DNA of 64,000 nucleotides from Somniosus microcephalus. Taxonomy: Eukaryota. Below are positions 7,063-61,740 of this stretch, piece after piece. The position numbers were made by a program, and so were the translations under genes. Below the pieces are notes generated by a model that saw only the letters and a list, made by a program, of their open reading frames with translations, did not search any database and had not been told where the DNA came from. Location: contig CM126210.1 of the NCBI GenBank assembly GCA_052327205.1, positions 38,316,001-38,380,000 on the forward strand, read 5' to 3'. Position 1 is the first letter of the stretch; each line of letters starts with the position of its first letter.

Positions 7063-9501
7063 AAGAACATACGAATTAGGAGCAGGAGTAGGCCACTCGG
7101 CCCCTCGAGCCTGCTCCGCCATTCAATAAGATCATGGCTGATCAGATTACTCCACATTCCTGCCTACCCCCGATAACCTTTCACCCCCTTGCTTATCAAG
7201 AATCTATCTAACTCTGCCTTAAAAATATTCAAAGGCTCTACTTCCACTGCCCTCTGAGGAAGAGAGTTCCAAAGACTCACGACCCTCTGAGAAAAAGTTT
7301 CTCCTCATCTCTGTCTTAAATGGGTGACCCCTAGTTCTAGATTCTCCCACAAGAGGAAACATCCTCTCCACATCCACTCTGTCAAGACCCCTCAGGATCT
7401 TATATGTTTCAATCAAGTCACTTCTTACTCTTCTAAACTCCAGCGGATACAAGCCTAGCCTATCCAACCTTTCCTCATAAGCCAACCCGCCCATTCCAGG
7501 TATTAGTCTAGTAAACCTTCTCTGAACTGTTTCCAACGCATTTACATCCTTCCTTAAATAAGGAGACCAATACTGTACACAGTCCTCCAGATGTGGTCTC
7601 ACCAATGCCCTGTATAACTGAAGCATAACCTCCCTACTTTTGTATTTAATTGCCCTTGCAATAAACGATAACATTCTATTAGCTTTTGTAATTACTTGCT
7701 GTACCTGCATACTAACCTTTTGCAATTCATGCACGAGGACACCCAGATCCCTCTGCATCTCAGAGCTCTGCAATCTCTCACCATTGAGATAATATGCTTC
7801 TTTTTTATTCTTCCTGCCAAAATGGACTTCACATTTTCCCACATTATACTCCATTTGCCAGATCTTTGCCCACTCACTTAACCTATCTATATCCCTTTGT
7901 AGCCTCATGTCCTCTTCACAATTTACTTTCCTACCTATCTTTGTGTCATCAGCAAATTTAGCAACCATACCTTCAGTCCCTTCATCTAAGTCATTTATAT
8001 AAATTGTAAAAAGTTGAGGCCCCAGCACTGATCCCTGTGGCACACCACTCGTTACATCTTGCCAATCAGAAAGTGACCCATTTATGCCTACTCTCTGTTT
8101 CCTGTTAGCTAGTCAATCTTCTATCCATGCCAATATGTTACCCCCTACACCATGAGCTTTTATTTTCCACAATAACCTTTGATGTGGCACCTTATCAAAT
8201 GCCTTCTGGAAATCTAAGTACAGTACATCCACCGGTTCCCCTTTATCCACAGTACATGTTACTTTCTCAAAGAACTCCAATAAATTGGTTAAACATGATT
8301 TCCCTTTCACAAAACCATGTTGACGCTGCCTGATTACCTTGAACTTTACTAAGTGACCTGCCATAACGTTTTTAATAATAGCTTCTAACATCTTCCCTAT
8401 GACAGATGTTAAGCTAACTGGCCTGTAGTTTCCTGCTTTCTGTCTCCCTCCCTTTTTGAATAAAAGTTACATTCGCTATTTTCCAATCTAATGGAACCTT
8501 CCCCAAATCTAGGGAATTTTGGAAAATTAAAACCAACGCATCAACTATCTCACTAGCCACTTCTTTTAAGACCCTAGGATGAAGTCCATCAGGACCCGGG
8601 GTCTTGTCAGCCCACAGCTCTAACAATTTGCTCAATACCACTTCCCTGGTGATTGTAATTTTCTTGATTTCCTCCCTCCCTTCCATTTCCTGATTTACAG
8701 CTATTTCTGAGTGTTACTTGTATCCTCTATAGGTGAAGACCGATGCAAAATATCTGTTCAATTCAACTGCCATCTCATTTTCCATTATTAATTCCGCAGA
8801 CTCACTTTTTATAGGACCAACGCTCACTTTGTTAACTCTTTTTTAAATATCTATAGAAACTCTTACTATCTGTTTTTATATTTCTAGCTAGCTTTCTCTC
8901 ATACTCTAATTTTTCTCTCCTTATTAATCTTTTAGTCATTCTTTGCTGTTTTTTATATTCTGTCCAATCTTCTGACCTGCCACCCATCTTTGCGCAATGA
9001 TATGCTTTTTCTTTAAGTTTGATACTATCTTTAACTTTTTTTTAGTTAACCACGGATGGTGGGTCCTCCCCTTGGAATTTTTCTTTCTTGTTGAAATGTA
9101 TATATTCTATGTATTTTGAAATATCCCCTTGAATGTCTGCCACTGCAACTCTATTGATCTATCCCTTAACCTAATTTGCAAGTTCACTTTAGCTAGCTCT
9201 GCTTTCATGCCCTCATAATTGCCTTTATTTAAGTTTAAAATACAAGTCTTGGACCCACTTTTCTTTCCCTCAAACTGAATGTAAAATTCAATTATATTAT
9301 GATCGCTGCTACCGAGGTGCACCTTCACTATGAGGTCATTAATTAATCCTATCTCGTTGCACAATACCAGGTCTAGTATAGCCTGCTCTCTGGTTGACTC
9401 CAGAACGTGCTGTTCTAAGAAACTAGCCCGAAAACATTCTATGAACTCCTCGTCTAGGCTACCTTTGCCCATCTGATTTTTCCAGTCTGTATGTAGATTA
9501 A
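7063..9501 (-). mobile_element. 5'-truncated CR1 LINE (about 2.4 kb) with frameshifted ORF2: end of endonuclease, linker, reverse transcriptase, 3' UTR
   Basis: ORF pieces ILDLVLCNE..LGSSDHN (EN), PGPDGLHPRVLKE, QHGFVKGKSCLTNLLEFF, YLDFQKAFDKVPH, PQGSVLGPQLF..KFADDTK (RT), split over four ORFs, so non-functional. Confidence 0.96.
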
Positions 9502-35650: not shown

Positions 35651-36734
35651 TTTGTTAATGTTCACTTGGCCAGCCGTTTAACTGGGAAAGGAGTGGGATA
35701 TCTGTTGCTGCAGAACACACCCACAGATTCTTCCACGCCTCCACATCGGGCTTCCTTTCACTGGGCATTACTTCTCCCTCAGCCCCACCTTTAAACTTGG
35801 CAAAGGTTGACTAGGTATTACAACTCCTTTTATAATGGCGGAGACAATATTTGTCCCCACACGCAACAAATAAGTGGCAACATCCCTTTAAATTTAAAGG
35901 CGCTGGCCTAATGTTCCACTTGCCCCACTTGGGCTCGCAGCTGGGACAAGACCAAGGCTGTGCTTGGATCTGATGCCAATTGTTCGACTAGCCTGACCAT
36001 GTAGAACTATGCGCAGTCAGCCCAGTGCATTGTGGGCTATCTTGGCTCAAGCAGCCAACCCACCTTGGCACAGACATTGTCAACATCACAAAATTGGGGT
36101 GTAGAAGTTTTTCCACCAATGAGGTAATTTCCTGGCTTATTCTCTTGCTTTTTGCCTTTATTAGGAATTTTTAAAAATTGTTCTTGAATAAAAACAATAA
36201 ATGTCTCCCTTCCTCTATTTATCACCTAGCAAAGACTACGACTCACACTGGGATATAGCTTCACGCGCGCTAGCAGCTCTCCCATACCTTACCCAAGTGG
36301 GCATTCCAGGTAGAATCCTAAAAAGATACAGCACAGAAGAAAGCCATTCGTCCCATCGTGCCTGGGCAGGCTCTTTGAAAGAGCTCTCCAATTAGTCACA
36401 CTCCCCTGCTCTTTCCCCATAGCCCTGCAACTTTTCCCTCAGTTCAGTAGCTACTGGCACGAATACCCTAGATTCCCCCGTGAGCCATGGGATTGAGTGC
36501 CAGCTGCTACTGGACTGCGGGGGCTTGGCACAGACGAGCCCAATCCCAGCTCCTGCCAACGGCCACCCAAAGTGCACTTTTCAGCAAATGGTCACTGAGG
36601 AGCAGGTTTGTGAAATTGAATTGAACAAATCTGGTTAATTTGCGGGCTACATCAGAAAAAAAACAGCCGCTAATAAAAAAAATGAAGGTGGGACTCATTG
36701 GAAAAATAAACGAGAGAGACACAGAGACAGAGTG

Positions 36735-39700
36735 GGCGGCGGGGAGCGGGAGGGCGCGGTGCGCGCGACAGGGAGCGGGAGGGCGAGCGAGCGAGAGACG
36801 GCGCGGGCGAGCGAGCGACGGCGCGGGCGATCGAGCGAGAGACGGCGCGGGCGAGCGAGAGACGGCGCGAGCGAGCGAGAGACGGCGCGAGCGAGCGAGA
36901 GACGGCGCGAGCGAGAGACGGCGCGAGCGAGCGAGAGAGACGGCGCGAGCGAGAGAGAGAGACGGCGCGAGCGAGAGAGAGAGACGGCGCGAGCGAGAGA
37001 GAGAGAGACGGCGCGAGCGAGAGAGAGAGAGACGGCGCGAGCGAGAGAGAGACCGAGCGAGCGAGAGAGACGGCGCGAGCGAGCGAGAGACGGCGCGAGC
37101 GAGCGAGAGAGAGACGGCGCGAGCGAGCGAGAGACGGCGCGAGCGAGCGAGAGAGAGACGGCGCGAGCGAGCGAGAGAGAGACGGCGCGAGCGAGCGAGA
37201 GACGGCGCGAGCGAGCGAGAGAGAGACGGCGCGAGCGAGCGAGAGAGAGACGGCGCGAGCGAGCGAGAGACGGCGCGAGCGAGCGAGAGACGGCGCGAGC
37301 GAGCGAGAGAGAGACGGCGCGAGCGAGCGAGAGACGGCGCGAGCGAGCGAGACGGCGCGAGCGAGCGAGAGACGGCGCGAGCGAGCGAGAGAGAGACGGC
37401 GCGAGCGAGCGAGAGAGAGACGGCGCGAGCGAGCGAGAGAGACGGCGCGAGCGAGCGAGAGAGAGACGGCGCGAGCGAGCGAGAGAGAGACGGCGCGAGC
37501 GAGCGAGAGAGAGACGGCGCGAGCGAGCGAGAGAGAGACGGCGCGAGCGAGCGAGAGAGAGACGGCGCGAGCGAGCGAGAGAGAGACGGCGCGAGCGAGC
37601 GAGAGAGAGACGGCGCGAGCGAGCGAGAGACGGCGCGAGCGAGAGACGGCGCGAGCGAGAGACGGCGCGAGCGAGCGAGAGACGGCGCGAGCGAGAGACG
37701 GCGCGAGCGAGCGAGAGAGACGGCGCGAGCGAGCGAGAGAGACGGCGCGAGCGAGCGAGAGAGAGACGGCGCGAGCGAGCGAGAGAGAGACGGCGCGAGC
37801 GAGCGAGAGAGAGACGGCGCGAGCGAGCGAGAGAGAGACGGCGCGAGCGAGCGAGAGAGAGACGGCGCGAGCGAGCGAGAGAGAGACGGCGCGAGCGAGC
37901 GAGAGAGAGACGGCGCGAGCGAGCGAGAGAGAGACGGCGCGAGCGAGCGAGAGAGAGACGGCGCGAGCGAGCGAGAGAGAGACGGCGCGAGCGAGCGAGA
38001 GAGAGACGGCGCGAGCGAGCGAGAGAGAGACGGCGCGAGCGAGCGAGAGAGAGACGGCGCGAGCGAGCGAGAGAGAGACGGCGCGAGCGAGCGAGAGAGA
38101 GACGGCGCGAGCGAGCGAGCGAGAGACGGCGCGAGCGAGCGAGCGAGAGACGGCGCGAGCGAGCGAGCGACGGCGCGAGCGAGCGAGAGAGAGACGGCGC
38201 GAGCGAGCGAGAGAGAGACGGCGCGAGCGAGCGAGAGAGAGACGGCGCGAGCGAGCGAGAGAGAGACGGCGCGAGCGAGCGAGAGAGAGACGGCGCGAGC
38301 GAGCGAGAGAGAGACGGCGCGAGCGAGCGAGAGAGAGACGGCGCGAGCGAGCGAGAGAGAGACGGCGCGAGCGAGCGAGAGAGAGACGGCGCGAGCGAGC
38401 GAGAGAGAGACGGCGCGAGCGAGCGAGAGAGAGACGGCGCGAGCGAGCGAGAGAGAGACGGCGCGAGCGAGCGAGAGACGGCGCGAGCGAGCGAGAGAGA
38501 GACGGCGCGAGCGAGCGAGAGAGAGACGGCGCGAGCGAGCGAGAGAGAGACGGCGCGAGCGAGCGAGAGAGAGACGGCGCGAGCGAGCGAGAGAGAGACG
38601 GCGCGAGCGAGCGAGAGAGAGACGGCGCGAGCGAGCGAGAGAGAGACGGCGCGAGCGAGCGAGAGAGAGACGGCGCGAGCGAGCGAGAGACGGCGCGAGC
38701 GAGCGAGAGAGAGACGGCGCGAGCGAGAGACGGCGCGAGCGAGCGAGAGAGAGACGGCGCGAGCGAGCGAGAGACGGCGCGAGCGAGCGAGAGAGAGACG
38801 GCGCGAGCGAGCGAGAGAGACGGCGCGAGCGAGCGAGAGAGAGACGGCGCGAGCGAGCGAGAGAGAGACGGCGCGAGCGAGCGAGAGAGAGACGGCGCGA
38901 GCGAGCGAGAGAGAGACGGCGCGAGCGAGCGAGAGACGGCGCGAGCGAGCGAGAGAGAGGCGGCGCGGGCGAGCGAGAGGCGGCGCGAGCGAGAGGCGGC
39001 GCGGGCGAGCGAGAGGCGGCGCGGGCGAGCGAGAGGCGGCGCGGGCGAGCGAGAGGCGGCGCGGGCAGCGAGAGGCGGCGCGGGAGAGGTGGCGCGGGCG
39101 AGCGAGAGGCGGCGCGGGCGAGCGAGAGGCGGCGCGGGCGAGCGAGAGGCGGCGCGGGCGAGCGAGAGGCGGCGCGGGCAGCGAGAGGCGGCGCGGGCGA
39201 GCGGGAGAGAGGCGGCGCGGGGGAGAGGCGGCGCGGGGGAGCGGGGGAGAGGCGGCGCGGGGGAGCGGGGGAGAGGCGGCGCGGGGGAGCGGGGGAGAGG
39301 CGGCGCGGGGGAGCGGGGGAGAGGCGGCGCGGGGGAGCGGGGGAGAGGCGGCGCGGGGGAGCGGGGGAGAGGCGGCGCGGGGGAGCGGGGGAGAGGCGGC
39401 GCGGGGGAGCGGGGGAGAGGCGGCGCGGGGGAGCGGGGGAGAGGCGGCGCGGGGGAGCGGGGGAGAGGCGGCGCGGGGGAGCGGGGGAGAGGCGGCGCGG
39501 GGGAGCGGGGGAGAGGCGGCGCGGGGGAGCGGGGGAGAGGCGGCGCGGGGGAGCGGGGGAGAGGCGGCGCGGGGGAGCGGGGGAGAGGCGGCGCGGGGGA
39601 GCGGGGGAGAGGCGGCGCGGGGGAGCGGGGGAGAGGCGGCGCGGGGGAGCGGGGGAGAGGCGGCGCGGGGGAGCGGCGGAGAGGCGGCGCGGGGGAGAGG

Positions 39701-41425
39701 CGGCGCGGGGGAGCGGCGGCGCGGGGGAGCGGCGGAGAGGCGGCGCGGGGGGAGCGGCGGAGAGGCGGCGCGGGGGAGCGGCGGCGCGGGGGAGCGGCGG
39801 AGAGGCGGCGCGGGGGAGCGGCGGCGCGGGGGAGCGGCGGAGAGGCGGCGCGGGGGAGCGGCGGCGCGGGGGAGCGGCGGAGAGGGGGAGCGGCGGAGAG
39901 GCGGCGCGGGGGAGCGGCGGCGCGGGGGAGCGGCGGAGAGGCGGCGCGGGGGAGAGGCGGCGCGGGGGAGCGGCGGAGAGGGGGAGCGGCGGCGCGGGGG
40001 AGCGGCGGAGGCGGCGCGGGGGAGCGGCGGAGAGGCGGCGCGGGGGAGAGGCGGAGAGGCGGCGCGGCGGAGAGACGGCGCGGGGGAAACAGCCGAGCGA
40101 GGGGGGGGTGGGGAGCGGCCGAGCGAGGGGGGGGGGGGGCGGCCGAGCGAGGGGGGGGAGCGGCCGAGAGAGGGGGGGGTGCGGCCGAGAGAGGCGGGGG
40201 GTGCGGCCGAGAGGGGGGGGGGTGCGGCCGAGAGAGGGGGGGGAGCGGCCGAGGGAGGGGGGGAGCGGCCGAGGGAGGGAGCGACAAGAGAGAGCGCGAG
40301 AGGGGGAGCGACAAGAGAGAGCGCGAGAGAGGGAGCGACAGAGAGAGCGCGAGAGAGGGAGCGACAGAGAGCGCGCGAGAGAGGGAGCGACAGAGAGCGC
40401 GAGAGAGGGAGCGACAGAGAGAGCGCGAGAGAGGGAGCGACAGAGAGAGCGCGAGAGAGGGAGCGACAGAGAGAGCGCGAGAGAGGGAGCGACAGAGAGA
40501 GCGCGAGAGAGGGAGCGACAGAGAGAGCGCGAGAGAGGGAGCGACAGAGAGAGCGCGAGAGAGGGAGCGACAGAGAGAGCGCGAGAGAGGGAGCGACAGA
40601 GAGAGCGCGAGAGAGGGAGCGACAGAGAGAGCGCGAGAGAGGGAGCGACAGAGAGAGCGCGAGAGAGGGAGCGACAGAGAGAGCGCGAGAGAGGGAGCGA
40701 CAGAGAGAGCGCGAGAGAGGGAGCGAGAGAGAGAGCGCGAGAGAGGGAGCGAGAGAGCGCGAGAGAGCGCGAGAGAGGGAGCGCGAGAGAGGGAGCGAGA
40801 GAGAGAGCGCGAGAGAGGGAGCGAGAGAGAGAGCGCGAGAGAGGGAGCGAGAGAGGGAGCGCGAGAGAGGGAGCGCGAGAGAGGGAGCGAGAGAGGGAGC
40901 GCGAGAGAGAGCGCGAGAGAGAGCGCGAGAGAGGGAGCGAGAGAGAGAGCGAGAGAGAGAGCGCGAGAGAGGGAGCGAGAGAGAGAGCGTGAGAGAGGGA
41001 GCGAGAGAGAGAGCGCGAGAGAGGGACCGACAGAGAGAGCGCGAGAGAGGGACCGACAGAGAGAGCGCGAGAGAGGGACCGACAGAGAGAGCGCGAGAGA
41101 GGGACCGACAGAGAGAGCGCGAGAGAGGGACCGACAGAGAGAGCGCGAGAGAGGGACCGACAGAGAGAGCGCGAGAGAGGGACCGACAGAGAGAGCGCGA
41201 GAGGGACCGACAGAGAGAGCGCGAGAGAGGGACCGACAGAGAGCACGTGAGAGGGACCGACAGAGAGAGCGCGAGAGAGGGACCGACAGAGAGCGCGCGA
41301 GAGAGGGACCGACAGAGAGCGTGCGAGAGAGGGACCGACAGAGAGAGCGCGAGAGAGGGACCGACAGAGAGAGCGCGAGAGAGGGACCGACAGAGAGAGC
41401 GCGAGAGAGGGAGCGACAGAGAGCA
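36735..41425 (+). repeat. 4.7-kb compound GC/purine-rich satellite (20-26-bp units built from GA, GC and GCG motifs)
   Basis: Blocks: GACGGCGCGAGCGAGCGAGAGAGA (24), GAGAGGCGGCGCGGGGGAGCGGGG (24), GAGAGAGGGAGCGACAGAGAGAGCGC (26), GAGAGAGGGACCGACAGAGAGAGCGC (26). Confidence 0.98.
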
Positions 41426-41704
41426 AAAACAGACTATGGGTGGGTTAGGGAGCGATTACACTAAGTGTTTTGATCTCTGCATCATAGATTATGAAAGTTT
41501 ACCAATACCTTAATAATATTAGAAACTCACGCTTCATGATGTGCAAATGGCAAAAATAGATTTCCATATTAAAAAATCTTTGGTAGCAGACATTCAGCAT
41601 AGAACGCTCCAGATGCACCACTGCTAAACGGTACCCTTGGGACTTAATCAAGGCTTGAAACCCAAGATGCACATTAGCGATGAACAGAAGGTATTACAGA
41701 ACTA

Positions 41705-47790: not shown

Positions 47791-50426
47791 TGGTAAATCA
47801 TACAGAGCTCTTATTGGATTCCAGGGTGAAGAATCTAATATACATGATGAAGATAAAGCTCGGTGCCAGTCAGAGGCAGAACATAATGGAGCAATGAAGG
47901 GAGGGATTATTTTAAAACAAGGATCATCAAGACTGGAGTTAGGAGGAGAAAGAGGAGCCAAGCAGGTCAGCTTTTTCTTTGAGCGGGATGGATGAAGATC
48001 AAATTTATGCACTGAATTTAATGGCAACACTACCGGAGCCCCCACATGCTCTCTTTCCCCCATCCTTTTTTAAAAAAGTCAAATTTTAAATGCACGGGCA
48101 GCTTGTTATTGTCGTCAGTCTCGATGTCTGCACATCCAGTGCTGGACGCCTTATCATGTTATGAGGAACAGCACATGTAACACGATAACTCAAACTGTTC
48201 ATCTAACTCACTGCAGATTTACAACGTAAACATCTTCATTGGAAGAGATGAGCTGATAGTGACCAGAACACATGTACATCAGCAGAAACTGCACAGAGTG
48301 TTTAACAACTGCACTGAACTCTACACTCATCAAAGATGGCCGCAAAACATTTAGAAGAATACAAGTTTTCGCTGGAGGTGCTGGAGATGGGGAAAGAATA
48401 TTTGTCAATCTGGAATACGTAACCCTCATAACCCAAGCAGGTGAAGCCTGAACTATTTTGGAACCAGAGTATGGGTTCGATGACAAGTACGCTCATATTT
48501 TTTGGGGGAAAACAGTTCATCTTTTTAAGTCTAAACACTTCACGAAGTGTTGTGAAATGCACTGATCTTGACGCCAACCCTGGTTGCATGAGCCAGACTG
48601 TCAGCCCAAGCTCATGCAGAAAAAGGCCACGTAAACAAATCGCAAGTTTCAGAGTTGGCCATGCCGGTGTTAAGCCACCTTAGCCCAGCAGATCAACACA
48701 CAATGGTTTAATCTTCACATTTAAAAATGCCGGGACTCAAACAAGTTCAGAAAGAAAATTCTCAACTATGCACAGCACAATATACTCTCAATATAGAAAG
48801 AAAAAAAACATTTACTTTTTAAAATAAGGTTAAAAAGAAATCTGCCCCAATCATTCTGGCCATGGAACTCCATACAAGTACCAAAAGAAGTTGCACAATG
48901 AGTACAGAACTGGCTTAGATCTCACCTCAGCAATACTGAAGTGGAAGATTAGTTTTAATTTTAGTCAGGGTACTTTGGACACCTTGGAGCTAAGGTGGTT
49001 GGGTGGTGGTCTCATTAAAGGTTTGGGGATTCCAGTGCTGGGAAATAGAATACACAGTTTTGCACCCAAAGTCAGAATCTACCACTCTACTCCAAAAATA
49101 AAACAGTGTGTCAGTGAGTTGCAGAGTAAACCTCCTCTGAATGAGCCAACATTAAAAAGGCAGCACCTGCAATTTCCACAGACAACAACATACCATTTTG
49201 CCCTGTAAAGCAAGTCTGAAACGCAAATGTGGGTAAATTGTGATTACACACTGTATGCAAACATATAATTAAAGGAACAGGGCAATGCGTGCGCTGAGTG
49301 CACTAAATTATAGTGTTATACAGTAGCACTGACACCAGCAATTGTGGAATCCATTCGGAGGGGTGTCGCCAATCTGTGCCAAGTTTAATGAGACAGACAC
49401 ACTCTGGGCTAGCGTGAGTCCAGCAAGTTTGAAGTGACAATTACAGCTGGATTAACACAGTTGCTGAAAGCGTACTTTGTTTGTTTTGCATCCAATGTTT
49501 AACGCAAGAACTGTGTTAAACATATTATAAAAGAATTACGATACTTGAGATTCAGAACATGGAAAAGCTATTGGAAATTTTATGACCTTGACAAGTAGCA
49601 TGAAGGAACGGTGTACAATTAAACATACAAGTGGCCAAATATTGCCTTTTAAGGGTGTTGAAATATCAGTACTTATTGTCATTAAGCAGACAGCTTCTAG
49701 TTAGCTTTTCAAAAAAACTCCTTCATTGTGATGGTTACAAATGCTAACTGTAGATAATTTGTCTTTCTGCATAACTTGCGATAATTCAAACTTTTGATAA
49801 TGGGCCAGATGGTTCAACTAGATTCCCCATTTCCTAGAATGTTAATTGTTCATCTTGATTTTTTTTTTTCTTAAATTCTGTTCTTTTTTTCCCCTAACTT
49901 GCTTTCTTTATTCACCAGAGATACAACCTCATGCTGGGGGATAGAGGGGCCAGTTCACCGCCCAAAGCTCCCACTGGGGAGCCGCACTCAAAGTCAGAGA
50001 ATCAGCGCTGCAGTATCGGAGCCGCATCACCAACCCACACTACCTCCTGCTGGGAGTGGGAGATTGCTGAACTTACCCCTTAGATGCAAGAGTGTAGCCC
50101 TCACACATCTCTACTTAATGACCAGTCTTCACATAAGCCATGGAAGTAGGTGTCCGCGATGGGGGTCGGGTGACCACGGTGGGGGTCGGGTGAGGAGAAA
50201 ATCACTGCTAGGTTCAATCCTTTCCTCAGCTGATGTCCACTCATTCACTTTCCAGCTAGAATCACGGGATAGCAATCAGGAATAAGAACCCTTGTCAATT
50301 TGTCCTCTCCTTAGCCCAGGAGCAGCATCCCGACCACTGCCCCAGTGGAGATTAACTAACAGCAGAGACGGAGTGGGACGGGGCGGGACTATCTTGATCT
50401 CTAAGGCTCAGTACCACACTGGGAAA

Positions 50427-50576
50427 CAACGTTCCCTCTTTTTGTTTGTGTGCGCGGCCCCATTAGGGGGCTGCACGGCCCAATCACAGTTTCATGCATG
50501 AGTGAAACTTTACATTGAAAATGCAAGTCCTGGGCTGCGCGGTACAGGCAGAGAGCTGGCCAGATAGGGAACATTG
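50427..50576. mobile_element. hAT-type MITE, copy 4
   Basis: CAACGTTCCCT...AGGGAACATTG; flanks ctgggaaa / ctgggcag (6/8). Confidence 0.75.
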
Positions 50577-50624
50577 CTGGGCAGTGCATTTATCCAGGAA
50601 CAGCTACCACGGGAGCTCCTCTTT

Positions 50625-51732
50625 TCATAGAATCTTTCAGCACAGAACGAGGCCCATTCTGCTAGCATTTTGAAAGAGCGATCCAATTAGCCCCACTTCC
50701 CTGCTCTTTCCCCATTGCTCTGCAGAATCTTCCACTTCAAGTATTTATCCAACTCACTTTTGAAAGTTACTACTGAATGTGCTTCCACCACCCTTTCAGG
50801 CAGTGCATTCCAGATCACAGCACCTTGCTGCGTAAAGAAAATTCCCTCAACTGCCCCCTGGTTCTTTTGCCAATTATCTTAAATCTGTGTCCTCTGGTTA
50901 CCGAACCCCCTGCCAGTGAATACTGGCCCTACTGATCGGCGGATTCTCTAATATCCCTGGCGCCTCGGAGTTAGAATAGAAATCTATTCCGGTGGAATTG
51001 TGGCGGGATCGGAATGCGTAGAAGGCAGTTGCATCAGGTGTTCCTGAAAGGCTTTTAGCTTAAGGATGTACCTCTGGTAGAAGTGGTCGTTCATGCTATA
51101 TATCAGTATGCCTCCCAATGTGGGAGTCCAGACGGTTATTCCATTCCTGTGCAACCGTTTGAGTAGCTGTAGCAGGGTCCGATCTATAAATAGTGTAGAA
51201 GGAGGGAGGTGGTCCCTCAGGATCCATTGCCCAATAGCATCCCAGCGGTAGCATTGATGGGCTTGCCGTCTGATCCGTAGTCTGTGTTGATTGATCTCTT
51301 TTAGGATGTTTAAGTGGAGTAAAATGTGCACGGTAGTTGTTACATCTGCACACAGTTCGATGTCGGTTGTAGGTATCAATGATAAATCTAAGAACTCTTC
51401 TTTTGGTAGGGGTTCCAGAGGTGCCGAGGCGATTCTATGTACTAATCCGAGACTGTCCATGCTTAATCGGTGTGAGGGAGAAGCTCTGTCCAGGGTGGTT
51501 GTTCATGGTGTAAACTTTACCATTCGGTGGGTATGCTAGTTATATACTCGAAAGGCTTTGCGTCATCGTCTACCTCCTGTATAATTGGTGTGTTGTGAGG
51601 TCCTGCCCACGGTGTTGGTTCACTTGTCAAAAACTCCTCCTAATTTTGAACACCTCTGTTAAATCTCCCTTTAACCTTTTTTGCTCTAAGGAGAACAATC
51701 CCAGCTTCTCATCTCTGCACATAGCTGAAGTA
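50625..51732 (-). mobile_element. CR1 LINE 3' fragment split by a 706-bp foreign insert
   Basis: 50625-50920 and 51627-51732 are colinear with the uninterrupted copy at 61260-61740. Confidence 0.9.
50984..51460 (-). CDS. Orphan 158-aa ORF in the foreign insert; possible endogenous viral accessory gene, expression unknown
   Basis: Intact ATG-TAG, complex non-repetitive peptide, intronless, no resemblance to DST or to LINE ORFs. Confidence 0.45.
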   Translation of the reverse strand: MDSLGLVHRIASAPLEPLPKEEFLDLSLIPTTDIELCADVTTTVHILLHLNILKEINQHRLRIRRQAHQCYRWDAIGQWILRDHLPPSTLFIDRTLLQLLKRLHRNGITVWTPTLGGILIYSMNDHFYQRYILKLKAFQEHLMQLPSTHSDPATIPPE

Positions 51733-52341: not shown

Positions 52342-52560
52342 CCGAAGGTCTTCCTGCTGTTGCTTTAACATCTCAAATTCGATGGCTGGGGTGGGTAACT
52401 GCGTAATCAGTGCCCGGGTCTCTTCAAGCCACGGCCAGAGCTCCTCGTAGGTCTCACAAAACTGACTGACCAGAGACTGAGCCCGTTCCAGCTGCAGGTA
52501 TCTCTCCGCATTCATCTGGCTGATCACCTCGTACTGTTTCTGAAGCATGTCCAGCTTGTT
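52342..52560 (-). CDS. DST: DST exon, 219 nt: [73 protein letters not shown]
   Basis: ttgtag|AAC...CGG|gtaagg. Confidence 0.95.
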
Positions 52561-52862: not shown

Positions 52863-53876
52863 CTTAAAACACAAGGAATAATACATCAGCACTGATGAAT
52901 AAATTACCCTTTTTTTGATTACAAACACACAGTACTGCTAGAAGCACCATTTTAGCAGCTTTGCACAGAATGGAATGTTAGTGTGAAAGTGGTATTAAGT
53001 ACACTGCTAGCCCCAGTCACGACTTCAGCTTTCCGAGTCCCGGCCAATGTAAAGTGCAGCCTGCTTTGAGTTTTAAGTGAAAGGTTGAGGTTGCAATAAG
53101 TTAGGAACATCGGAATTACTAGACAAATAAAGATCACGGGTCCATCTAGTTCGTCTTCTAACATCCTGGTAGTCACATGATACAATGATAATGGAGTTAT
53201 TGACTAATCATGGCAATCTATCTCTAACAATTAGTCTACAACAGACCCAGACATGAGGCGAGGAAAACCCCAGTGGTGGAGAGCTTTGGGAACCATAGAT
53301 CCAAAGACACCGGTTCCTCCCAAGCATGCTTATCACATGTCATGTCCCAAATTACTCTCACGCTGTATCCCAAAATATGTGATTGTCTGAAAGAAATCTA
53401 CTTAATCTGCATTTGAATTGATCAATGCTAACTGCCCCCACCGTCTACCTAGGGAGCCTATTACATATATAGACCACTCGCTCACTAAAATATTGTTTCT
53501 GCAGATTAGTTTTTGAATGTATTCCCCTTCAAGCGCAGGCTGTGTCCTCTGGTTCTGTGAATAATATATAAAATTCACGTATAAAGTTTTGACCGAATCA
53601 AACACCATCAATAGTGGGTTGTTTGCAGCGGCAGATATTGGGCAAGTGAAATATTCCTTTCCTATTGGTTCACTCGTTCCTTAAAGAAACCTTCTCATGG
53701 GCCATTCAGTGCGACTTGACCAGGTGAAGATTAAAAGTGCAGAAGTCAAATCCAGTGTACGATGGATGGGTTAACAATCCACTGGGCAAAACAAGAAAAA
53801 TGTCAACAAGTGTTAAGCCACAAGCGTAAACACTCAAAACACGATGCTGCAAGGTGTAGCAGATCACTGGGCTGAC

Positions 53877-54376
53877 CAGCACCCCTACACAGGTGGCACT
53901 GGGCAATGAGCAACGGGACCTCCAGCATCAGTACACAGGTGGCACTGGGCAATCGGCAACAAGACATCCAGCATCAGTACACAGGTGGCACTGGGCAATT
54001 GGCAATGGGACCTCCAGCATCAGTACAGAGGTGGCACTGGGCAATTGGCAACGAGACATCCAGCATCAGTACACAGGTGGCACTGAGCAATTGGCAACGA
54101 GACCGCCAGCACCCGTACACAGGTGGCACTGGGCAATTGGCAATGAGACATCCAGCATCAGTACACAGGTGGCACTGAGCAATTGGCAACGAGACATCCA
54201 GCACCCGTACACAGGTGGCACTGGGCAACAGGTAACGAGACATCCAGCATCAGTACACAGGTGGCACTGGGCAACAGGTAACGAGACATCCAGCATCAGT
54301 ACACAGGTGGCACTGGGCAACAGGTAACGAGACATCCAGCATCAGTACACAGGTGGCACTGGGCAATTGGCAACTA
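53877..54376. repeat. 46-bp minisatellite, about 11 copies
   Basis: Unit TACACAGGTGGCACTGGGCAATTGGCAACGAGACATCCAGCATCAG at 46-bp spacing from 53886. Confidence 0.97.
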
Positions 54377-61259: not shown

Positions 61260-61740
61260 GAAGTATACAGCACGAAAGGAAGCTATTCGACCCAATGTGC
61301 CAGAGCCGGCTCTTTGCAAGAGCTCTCCAATTAGTCCCACTCCCCTGATCTTTCCCCATAACCCTGCAGAGTCTTCCCCTTCAAGTATTTATCCAATTCA
61401 CTTTTGAAAGATACTATTGAATCTGCTTCCACCACCCTTTCAGGCAGATCACAACAACTCGCTACACAATTCCGCTCATGTCGCCTCTGGTTCTTTTGCC
61501 AATTACTTGAAATCTGTGTCCTCTGGTTACTGACCCTCCTGTTACTGGAAACAGTTTCTCCTCATTTACTCTATCAAAACCCCTCATGATTTTGAACACC
61601 TCTATCAAATCTCCTCTTAACCTTCTCTGCTCCAAGGAGAAGAACCCCAACTTCTCTAATCTCTCCACATAACTGAAGTCCCTCATCCCTGGTACCATTC
61701 CAGTAAATCTGCACCCTCTCCGAGGCCTTGCCATCCTTCC
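61260..61740 (-). mobile_element. CR1 LINE 3' fragment
   Basis: FSYVERLEKLGFFSLEQRRLRGDLIEVFKIMRGFDRV. Confidence 0.9.

Follow-up and report, generated by a model that had tools for sequence, protein, structure and literature searches.

Anelloviruses have circular, negative-sense ssDNA genomes of 1.6-3.9 kb that lack Rep; they are transcribed from one Pol II promoter placed in the non-coding region just before ORF2, and their classification rests on the capsid protein ORF1/VP1, a single jelly-roll with an Arg-rich N-terminus. They are described from mammals and birds, and their origin has been called enigmatic (PMC10266747). Their ORF2 is defined by the motif W-x7-H-x3-C-x-C-x5-H (PMC10266747, PMC12772153), and ORF2/3 is reported to initiate anellovirus replication, its N-terminal domain having been modelled with zinc bound (PMC12772153). 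In gyroviruses, VP3 overlaps VP2 and its similarity between species can be only 10-17%; in GyV11, VP2 bears the same motif with a CX5R signature 12 residues on, and the overlapping VP3 has 134 aa (PMC6950609). The untranslated region of chicken anaemia virus is described as containing CCAAT, ATF/CREB, SP1 and TATA sites (PMC10977075). With regard to integration, repair-mediated capture has been proposed for a somatic anellovirus integrant in SKNO-1, whose ORF2 carries an early stop (PMC13689230). A screen of eukaryotic genomes published in 2011 is reported to have detected nothing resembling an anellovirus (PMC3198968), and no anellovirus appears among the DNA viruses confirmed in elasmobranchs that were listed in 2026 (PMC13696692). 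Our literature search turned up neither a germline anellovirus nor one from fish, its scope leaving aside supplements and most subscription journals, which could list such elements.

Here, we describe a 706-bp insert in a 6.4-Gb shark genome (G000), found within an analysed stretch of 64 kb (G000:C9:38316001-38380000, hereafter the window). We consider it more probable than not, at a probability of roughly 0.57, that this insert is the germline fossil of a fragment of an anellovirus- or gyrovirus-like DNA virus, comprising a promoter and the first two overlapping genes. On this reading, the arrangement would function as the gene block at the 5' end of a gyrovirus does; membership of the Anelloviridae is unproven, since the capsid gene is missing from the fragment and the ORF2 score falls just below the cut-off. 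A viral origin had already been proposed from the sequence (hereafter the original prediction) and is supported here, on a different basis: the ORF2-like motif, the overlapping frames and the silent-site bias presented below are all new.

The insert resides in an intron of dystonin (DST), which is encoded on the minus strand. This gene was identified because the neighbouring exon (Table 1) is 84% identical to a dystonin-like protein of Callorhinchus milii, the other 24 matches showing 61-75% identity; other exons in the window encode spectrin repeats, supporting the assignment. In the intron downstream of this exon, and in sense orientation to DST, lies the 3' fragment (50625-51731) of a LINE that we take to be CR1 from its ORF2 C-terminus, and this fragment is interrupted by the 706 bp. 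Several other repeats were observed in the window. Another CR1-type LINE piece, on the minus strand at 7219-8466, bears a reverse transcriptase (RT) region, with a 297-aa open stretch and a match to RVT_1 over 7222-8112. A GC-rich short-unit tandem array of approximately 5 kb, an ordinary satellite-like repeat in which each strand has frames open over 1450-1650 codons, occupies 36500-41500 in a DST intron. To the left of the interrupted CR1, GC-rich repeat pieces at 49919-50600 (GC 0.51-0.55, with high contig depth at 50400-50547) gave 0 Rfam matches and are probably SINE-like, and a tandem repeat at 53860-54327, degenerate and strongly AT-skewed, yields a repetitive frame of 155 aa.

Table 1. 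Coordinates of the insert, its putative components and its surroundings (window positions).
Feature	Position	Strand	Basis or remark
CR1 LINE 3' part (ORF2 end and 3' tail), left flank of insert	50625..50920	-	69-88% vs other CR1 3' copies in the window
Foreign insert, 706 bp, likely fragment of an anellovirus/gyrovirus-like DNA virus	50921..51626	-	Single copy; bridged junctions; relative in organism C
Intact 158-aa ORF, +1 to the ORF2-like frame, VP3-like position	50984..51460	-	Starts 46 nt after the first ATG
ORF2/VP2-like frame	51060..51506	-	Stops at 51435-51437 (codon 24), 51096-51098 (codon 137) and 51060-51062 (codon 149)
F-x7-H-x3-C-x-C-x5-H motif, codons 41-61, with CX5R from first Cys	51324..51386	-	Predicted Zn-binding helical module
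Probable Pol II promoter and non-translated region of the virus	51507..51626	-	Motif words and spacing
TATA box	51546-51540 (-40)	-	40 nt before the first ATG
TGACG, CRE half-site	51565-51561 (-59)	-	
CCAAT	51588-51584 (-82)	-	
GC-box-like element	starts 51608 (-102 from ATG)	-	
CR1 5' continuation, same copy	51627..51731	-	In register beyond 23-nt gap; 84% vs copy 61576-61679
DST exon (neighbour)	52342..52560	-	Protein matches; splice sites read from sequence

The boundaries first proposed for the insert were confirmed, as the CR1 3' sequence aligns to another copy in the window up to approximately 50920 and resumes at approximately 51627-51630. Likewise, the reported loss of about 23 nt of CR1 and lack of a target-site duplication (TSD) held in comparison with the copy at 61529-61590, relative to which the interrupted copy lacks 23 nt and shows no duplicated target. 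The left junction is uncertain by a few bases and is straddled by a 6-bp inverted repeat (50912-50917 / 50922-50927). The stop codon (51517-51519), the ATG (51504-51506) and the 158-aa ORF (51460-50984) had all been annotated exactly. The insert contains neither AATAAA nor ATTAAA as a poly(A) signal, and with the 23-nt deletion and the missing TSD it thus departs from a processed retrocopy made by LINE target-primed insertion. An Rfam scan returned 0 matches, and the observed/expected CpG ratio was 0.70 in the insert and 0.62 in the window. When searched against G000, the insert matched only itself, as did the upstream 127 nt; the full-length source that the original prediction proposed to look for in the host genome was thus not found.

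We confirmed the presence of the insert outside the assembly by comparison with sequencing runs. A run index contained 13 runs with all (or part) of the stretch in 7 of them, from 2 studies, and 8 of the 13 were compared. In organism A (run X1, possibly the assembly's own sample), one contig covers 50881-51670 with 0/790 differences; in organism B (run X3), one contig covers 50882-51670 with 2/789 differences. Each contig bridges both junctions by at least 39 nt, at a depth like that of neighbouring single-copy DNA, demonstrating that the insert is not an assembly artefact. Both junctions, which the original prediction had wanted spanned, are therefore spanned independently of the assembly, subject to the possible identity of X1 with its sample. 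The insert is a chromosomally integrated, inherited germline element common to organisms A and B.

The informative frame is the one opened by the ATG at 51506, which the original prediction had passed over. Its open 112-aa middle part matched the Pfam family PF02957 (TT_ORF2-like) with an E-value of 5.2e-5 and 23.6 bits, below the curated cut-off of 24.3, and when all six frames of the insert were searched with X at the stops (7 sequences), PF02957 was the sole family matched (E 1.9e-4 and 2.8e-4). In a genome-wide PF02957 search of all 6.4 Gb, the insert was the best of 124 scored candidates, but with an E-value of only 0.34; the second-best match (L003), a stop-ridden CR1 frame, was rejected as a chance match. 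The first residue of the motif is Phe where Trp is expected in anelloviruses, while the H, C, C and H residues and their spacing are kept, and CX5R starts at the first Cys, 12 residues past the aromatic residue, the same offset as in GyV11 VP2. The core H-x3-C-x-C-x5-H has a single match across the six frames of the window. Among 20000 Markov samples, none had the complete motif with its first residue aromatic, and 24 had the core. The tail following the motif consists of 51% P/S/T/Q/E/D, and a T-Q-T stretch after the motif is a candidate dynein light-chain binding site.

Searches for relatives of this frame and for a capsid gene were negative within their scope. The 112-aa frame gave one candidate per search against 5.8 billion proteins, none of which scored, 278 pattern matches among metagenome contigs with 0 confirmed, and no usable match in the ESM Atlas. 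AlphaFold2 run without an alignment modelled the 60-aa motif piece as one unbroken helix with no visible Zn site, and a Foldseek comparison of this model with BFVD was uninformative (0/23 matches at E<=0.001). Across protein, contig and fold searches, neither insert frame had a protein homologue or a fold match. No capsid (ORF1/VP1) was found in the six frames of the insert, and a strict first look for PF04162 and PF02956 in G000, whose controls were silent and which would miss weak matches, returned nothing.

These negative results bear on the rival that survives best, unlikely as we judge it, namely that the fragment came by the same repair route from another, undescribed small DNA virus, such as a parvo-, papova-, adoma- or CRESS-like fish virus, with an ORF2-like module acquired by convergence or exchange. 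Such a virus would explain every observation without needing a capsid gene and would suit both the atypical first residue of the motif and the long overprinted ORF without a homologue; moreover, animal DNA viruses are reported to exchange genes widely (10.1101/2024.03.25.586562). However, the sole family signal is that of Anelloviridae, including CX5R at the gyrovirus offset, and in the literature searched the motif occurs only in reports on anelloviruses and gyroviruses.

The upstream part of the insert had been read as the C-terminal 36 codons of an ORF. This reading did not hold up well: the 36-codon stretch is more likely untranslated and more likely a promoter than an ORF end, because CCAAT, TGACG and TATA words stand at promoter-like spacing (Table 1) and because a relative of the insert in organism C, described below, has a -1/+1 indel pair inside it, at 51550/51561. 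TATA and CCAAT at this spacing occurred in 263/200000 Markov samples. In the upstream stretch of organism C, the TGACG site is altered and no difference is listed in the TATA box. The insert was covered over 361 nt by 5 RNA reads in run X8 (24% of the run read) and by 14 in run X9 (31% read), all in a single orientation, a comparison made without an intron baseline. These 19 reads displayed no joints and no start pile-up, and some lay upstream of the TATA box, so that the few reads fit an origin from DST pre-mRNA; no transcript of the insert's own was seen, and the run index listed no RNA run as carrying the insert.

The second frame, the intact 158-aa ORF, is the single match to its own protein in G000. 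An ATG-to-stop ORF of at least 158 aa arose in 30/20000 Markov samples of the insert. The faint resemblance to a deltaretroviral Tax segment that had been noted for it found no backing: the 158/172-aa frame had 0 Pfam families at E<=10, and no PDB match was better than E 0.13, that one being to an unrelated protein. No NCBIfam model matched it at E<=1, nor any of the three insert proteins (0/3). Against 1.84 billion representatives, one match was obtained, to the tandem-repeat protein P0002 (31 residues at approximately 33%), and was discarded as spurious. Among viral contigs, 9 pattern matches gave 0 confirmed, and the top score in the ESM Atlas was 0.86, with no homologue. Its AlphaFold2 model, built without an alignment, reached a pLDDT of 31.8, and Foldseek against BFVD was uninformative (0/184 at E<=0.001). 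Since VP3 similarity can fall to 10-17% between gyrovirus species, no match would be expected for a VP3-like protein; at 158 aa, the frame exceeds the longest VP3 named in PMC6950609 (134 aa). No Arg-rich, ATG-started capsid frame was found near the end of this ORF. The frame is still open since insertion, and nothing indicates its use by the host.

A relative of the insert was present in all four organism-C runs (2 samples) with 85-88% identity. Differences numbered 85/570 nt in X6, 45/333 in X5 and 48/343 in X7, and 52/441 and 32/218 in two contigs of X4. Sequencing depth over the relative approaches that of single-copy host DNA, which makes it likely to be endogenous in organism C. Host DNA in the organism-C runs differed at 16/473 sites (DST exon and intron) and 26/300 sites (left intron), less than the insert in the same runs. 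By subtraction across runs, divergence along the insert is uneven, with about 7/108 differences in 51177-51284 and about 33/129 in 51048-51176. The transition:transversion counts, 18:24 for the insert and 9:5 for host DNA, did not differ significantly (P 0.22). The 1371-nt X7 contig leaves CR1 beyond 51627 and continues upstream into approximately 255-295 nt of unlike, non-CR1 DNA, with about 500 nt unaligned downstream; in the 878-nt X6 contig, approximately 300 nt to the left of 51048 are unaligned. These extensions into unaligned DNA point to a separate, longer integrant in organism C. By contrast, contigs in three of the four organism-C runs (X4, X5 and X6) end at approximately 51617-51627, that is, at the 51626 junction of organisms A and B, which argues against a separate integrant. 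The two X4 contigs overlap over 51073-51290, which suggests that organism C has at least two copies or alleles.

The differences from organism C were used to examine coding constraint, with 40 of at most 45 X5 differences listed and classed by eye against the silent alternatives per site. In the motif region of the ORF2-like frame (51285-51386), 7/8 listed differences are silent (expected 0.23, P 2e-4); read in the 158-aa frame, the same 8 differences give 3/8 silent. Over 51285-51506, 13/27 listed differences are silent in the ORF2-like frame (P 0.006). Should the 5 unlisted differences all be non-silent, the counts become 7/13 (P 0.01-0.06) and 13/32 (P 0.03), and exclusion of one silent site with a polymorphism in organisms A and B reduces the listed count in the motif region to 6/7. 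Both ATGs are untouched in organism C, the sole indel in the ORF2-like frame is of 3 nt, and the stops at codons 24 and 137 have no counterpart there and were likely gained since insertion. The silent bias, the kept ATGs, the 3-nt indel and the unshared stops support the view that the ORF2-like frame was coding and under purifying selection. For the 158-aa frame, the ATG is kept and no indel is listed in 51048-51460, and the silent excess is not significant (6/17, P 0.24; 5/11, P 0.12, for a subset listed out of several dozen); this frame was probably also coding, judged by its length and its kept ATG. The claim that the ORFs are better preserved than the surrounding LINE is accordingly retained for the 158-aa frame and dropped for the frame from ATG 51506, with its stops at codons 24 and 137.

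The multiplicity in organism C also bears on the rather improbable alternative that part of a mobile element of the host, or of the env or accessory region of an endogenous retrovirus (ERV), was copied into the break and that organism C keeps a longer copy. In G000, we observed a multi-copy family of frames that we take to be ERV env-like from their sequence features (L006-L008 and L010-L014 on C40 and C73, plus a match on C39), with at least 7 near-identical copies on C40 carrying internal stops; in L014, what is presumably an integrase-like end lies upstream of the env-like frame. The ORF2-like frame weakly matches these frames (37-38% over approximately 67 aa, best E 0.175), and organism C seems to carry more than one copy or allele, as the overlapping X4 contigs suggest. 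However, the env match is not significant and does not extend, and DNA similarity is confined to words of 14-19 nt. The His-Cys-Cys-His residues are missing from the env frames, G000 has the insert only once, and the interior of env would be an ill-suited place for a TATA box located 40 nt ahead of an ATG.

As to the route of entry, the original prediction had favoured RT template switching from CR1 onto a viral RNA and named capture during break repair as the alternative. Our analysis reverses this order. In the form still to be weighed, which we regard as improbable, the CR1 RT would have jumped to viral RNA, either from a pX/Tax region like that of deltaretroviruses or from an N-X/P junction like that of bornaviruses, before returning to its own template. 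The orientation of the insert, sense to CR1, holds as described, and the upstream frame stays open over 36 codons; the spacing of 46 nt between the two ATGs also resembles the bornavirus X/P arrangement. The shared polarity is, however, a one-in-two coincidence. Moreover, the six frames have no Pfam match to Tax or bornavirus families, there is no poly(A) signal, no gene-end A-run was seen between the frames, and CR1 is in register on both sides, so that two switches would be required. The upstream stretch is promoter-like and has the indel pair in organism C; as a promoter would lie upstream of, and hence outside, any transcript, capture of DNA is favoured over switching onto RNA. Break repair fits better than two RT switches, given the 23-nt loss, the lack of a TSD and poly(A) signal and the inclusion of pre-transcript sequence, and the inverted repeat at the junction also fits it.

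The least credible reading, that the insert is ordinary host DNA whose donor locus was lost and whose motif, ORFs and promoter words are due to chance, would accommodate the sub-threshold Pfam score, the want of database homologues and a CpG ratio of 0.70 close to the 0.62 of the window, but it needs a joint occurrence of rarities (motif 0/20000, ORF 30/20000, promoter 263/200000, silent bias P 2e-4 to 0.03) and sits poorly with a divergence from organism C that is uneven and above that of host introns.

In summary, we propose a model in which DNA of an anellovirus- or gyrovirus-like virus, carrying a promoter and two overlapping genes, would have served as filler at a double-strand break in an old CR1 copy and been sealed in by end-joining repair. 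By analogy with known viruses, a single promoter with CCAAT, a CRE half-site and TATA would have driven the viral mRNA, from which the first ATG would have yielded an ORF2/VP2-like protein that binds Zn, ends in a disordered tail and acts in regulation or replication, and leaky scanning to the second ATG would have yielded a VP3-like overprinted protein. The downstream capsid gene would not have been captured. After insertion, the ORF2-like frame likely gained its two stops while the 158-aa frame stayed open; speculatively, the loss of the ORF2-like frame may have made fixation easier.

The insert bears on two open questions, where anelloviruses came from and how old they are. The broader interpretation, to which we give even odds, is that the anellovirus lineage (Commensaviricota) left this insert as a germline fossil, with a less decayed, separate integrant in a related species, and that gyrovirus-like viruses with a VP2/VP3-type block infected sharks. 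If true, cartilaginous fish would join mammals and birds as hosts of the family, which would point to an age equal to that of jawed vertebrates. Should the assignment hold, the insert would be a rare inherited fossil that can be dated and used as bait for living shark relatives in public reads, and fragments of this kind would be seen to escape screens based on capsid or Rep. If the family assignment is mistaken, the insert would nevertheless represent an undescribed lineage of shark DNA viruses, apparently integrated more than once.

Compared with known systems, the locus most resembles the gyrovirus VP2/VP3 block. Its CCAAT, ATF/CREB-type and TATA words resemble the promoter sites of chicken anaemia virus (PMC10977075), and, as in GyV11, the first ORF bears x7-H-x3-C-x-C-x5-H with CX5R 12 residues on and is overlapped by a second ORF (PMC6950609); as in VP2, a low-complexity tail follows the motif in the insert. 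It differs in having Phe for Trp, a 158-aa overlapping ORF without a match to apoptin and no capsid gene, and in its host, a cartilaginous fish, whereas the family is described from mammals and birds (PMC10266747). With mammalian anellovirus ORF2 (TTV/TTMV, and the N-terminal domain of Rip ORF2/3), it shares the motif but for its first residue, a predicted helical Zn-binding module followed by disorder, and an upstream TATA (PMC12772153); their overlapping frame, however, is the Arg-rich ORF1 capsid, while that of the insert is short and not Arg-rich at its start. Somatic integrants (SKNO-1 rDNA and TTMV::RARA) likewise show repair-type capture replacing host bases, with an early ORF2 stop in SKNO-1 (PMC13689230), but are recent and somatic, whereas the insert is a partial germline element in organisms A and B with a relative in C. 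Finally, like endogenous circoviral and other ssDNA elements, the insert would be a non-retroviral DNA virus fragment fixed in a vertebrate genome (PMC6372831), although the known ones are mostly derived from rep, unlike the insert.
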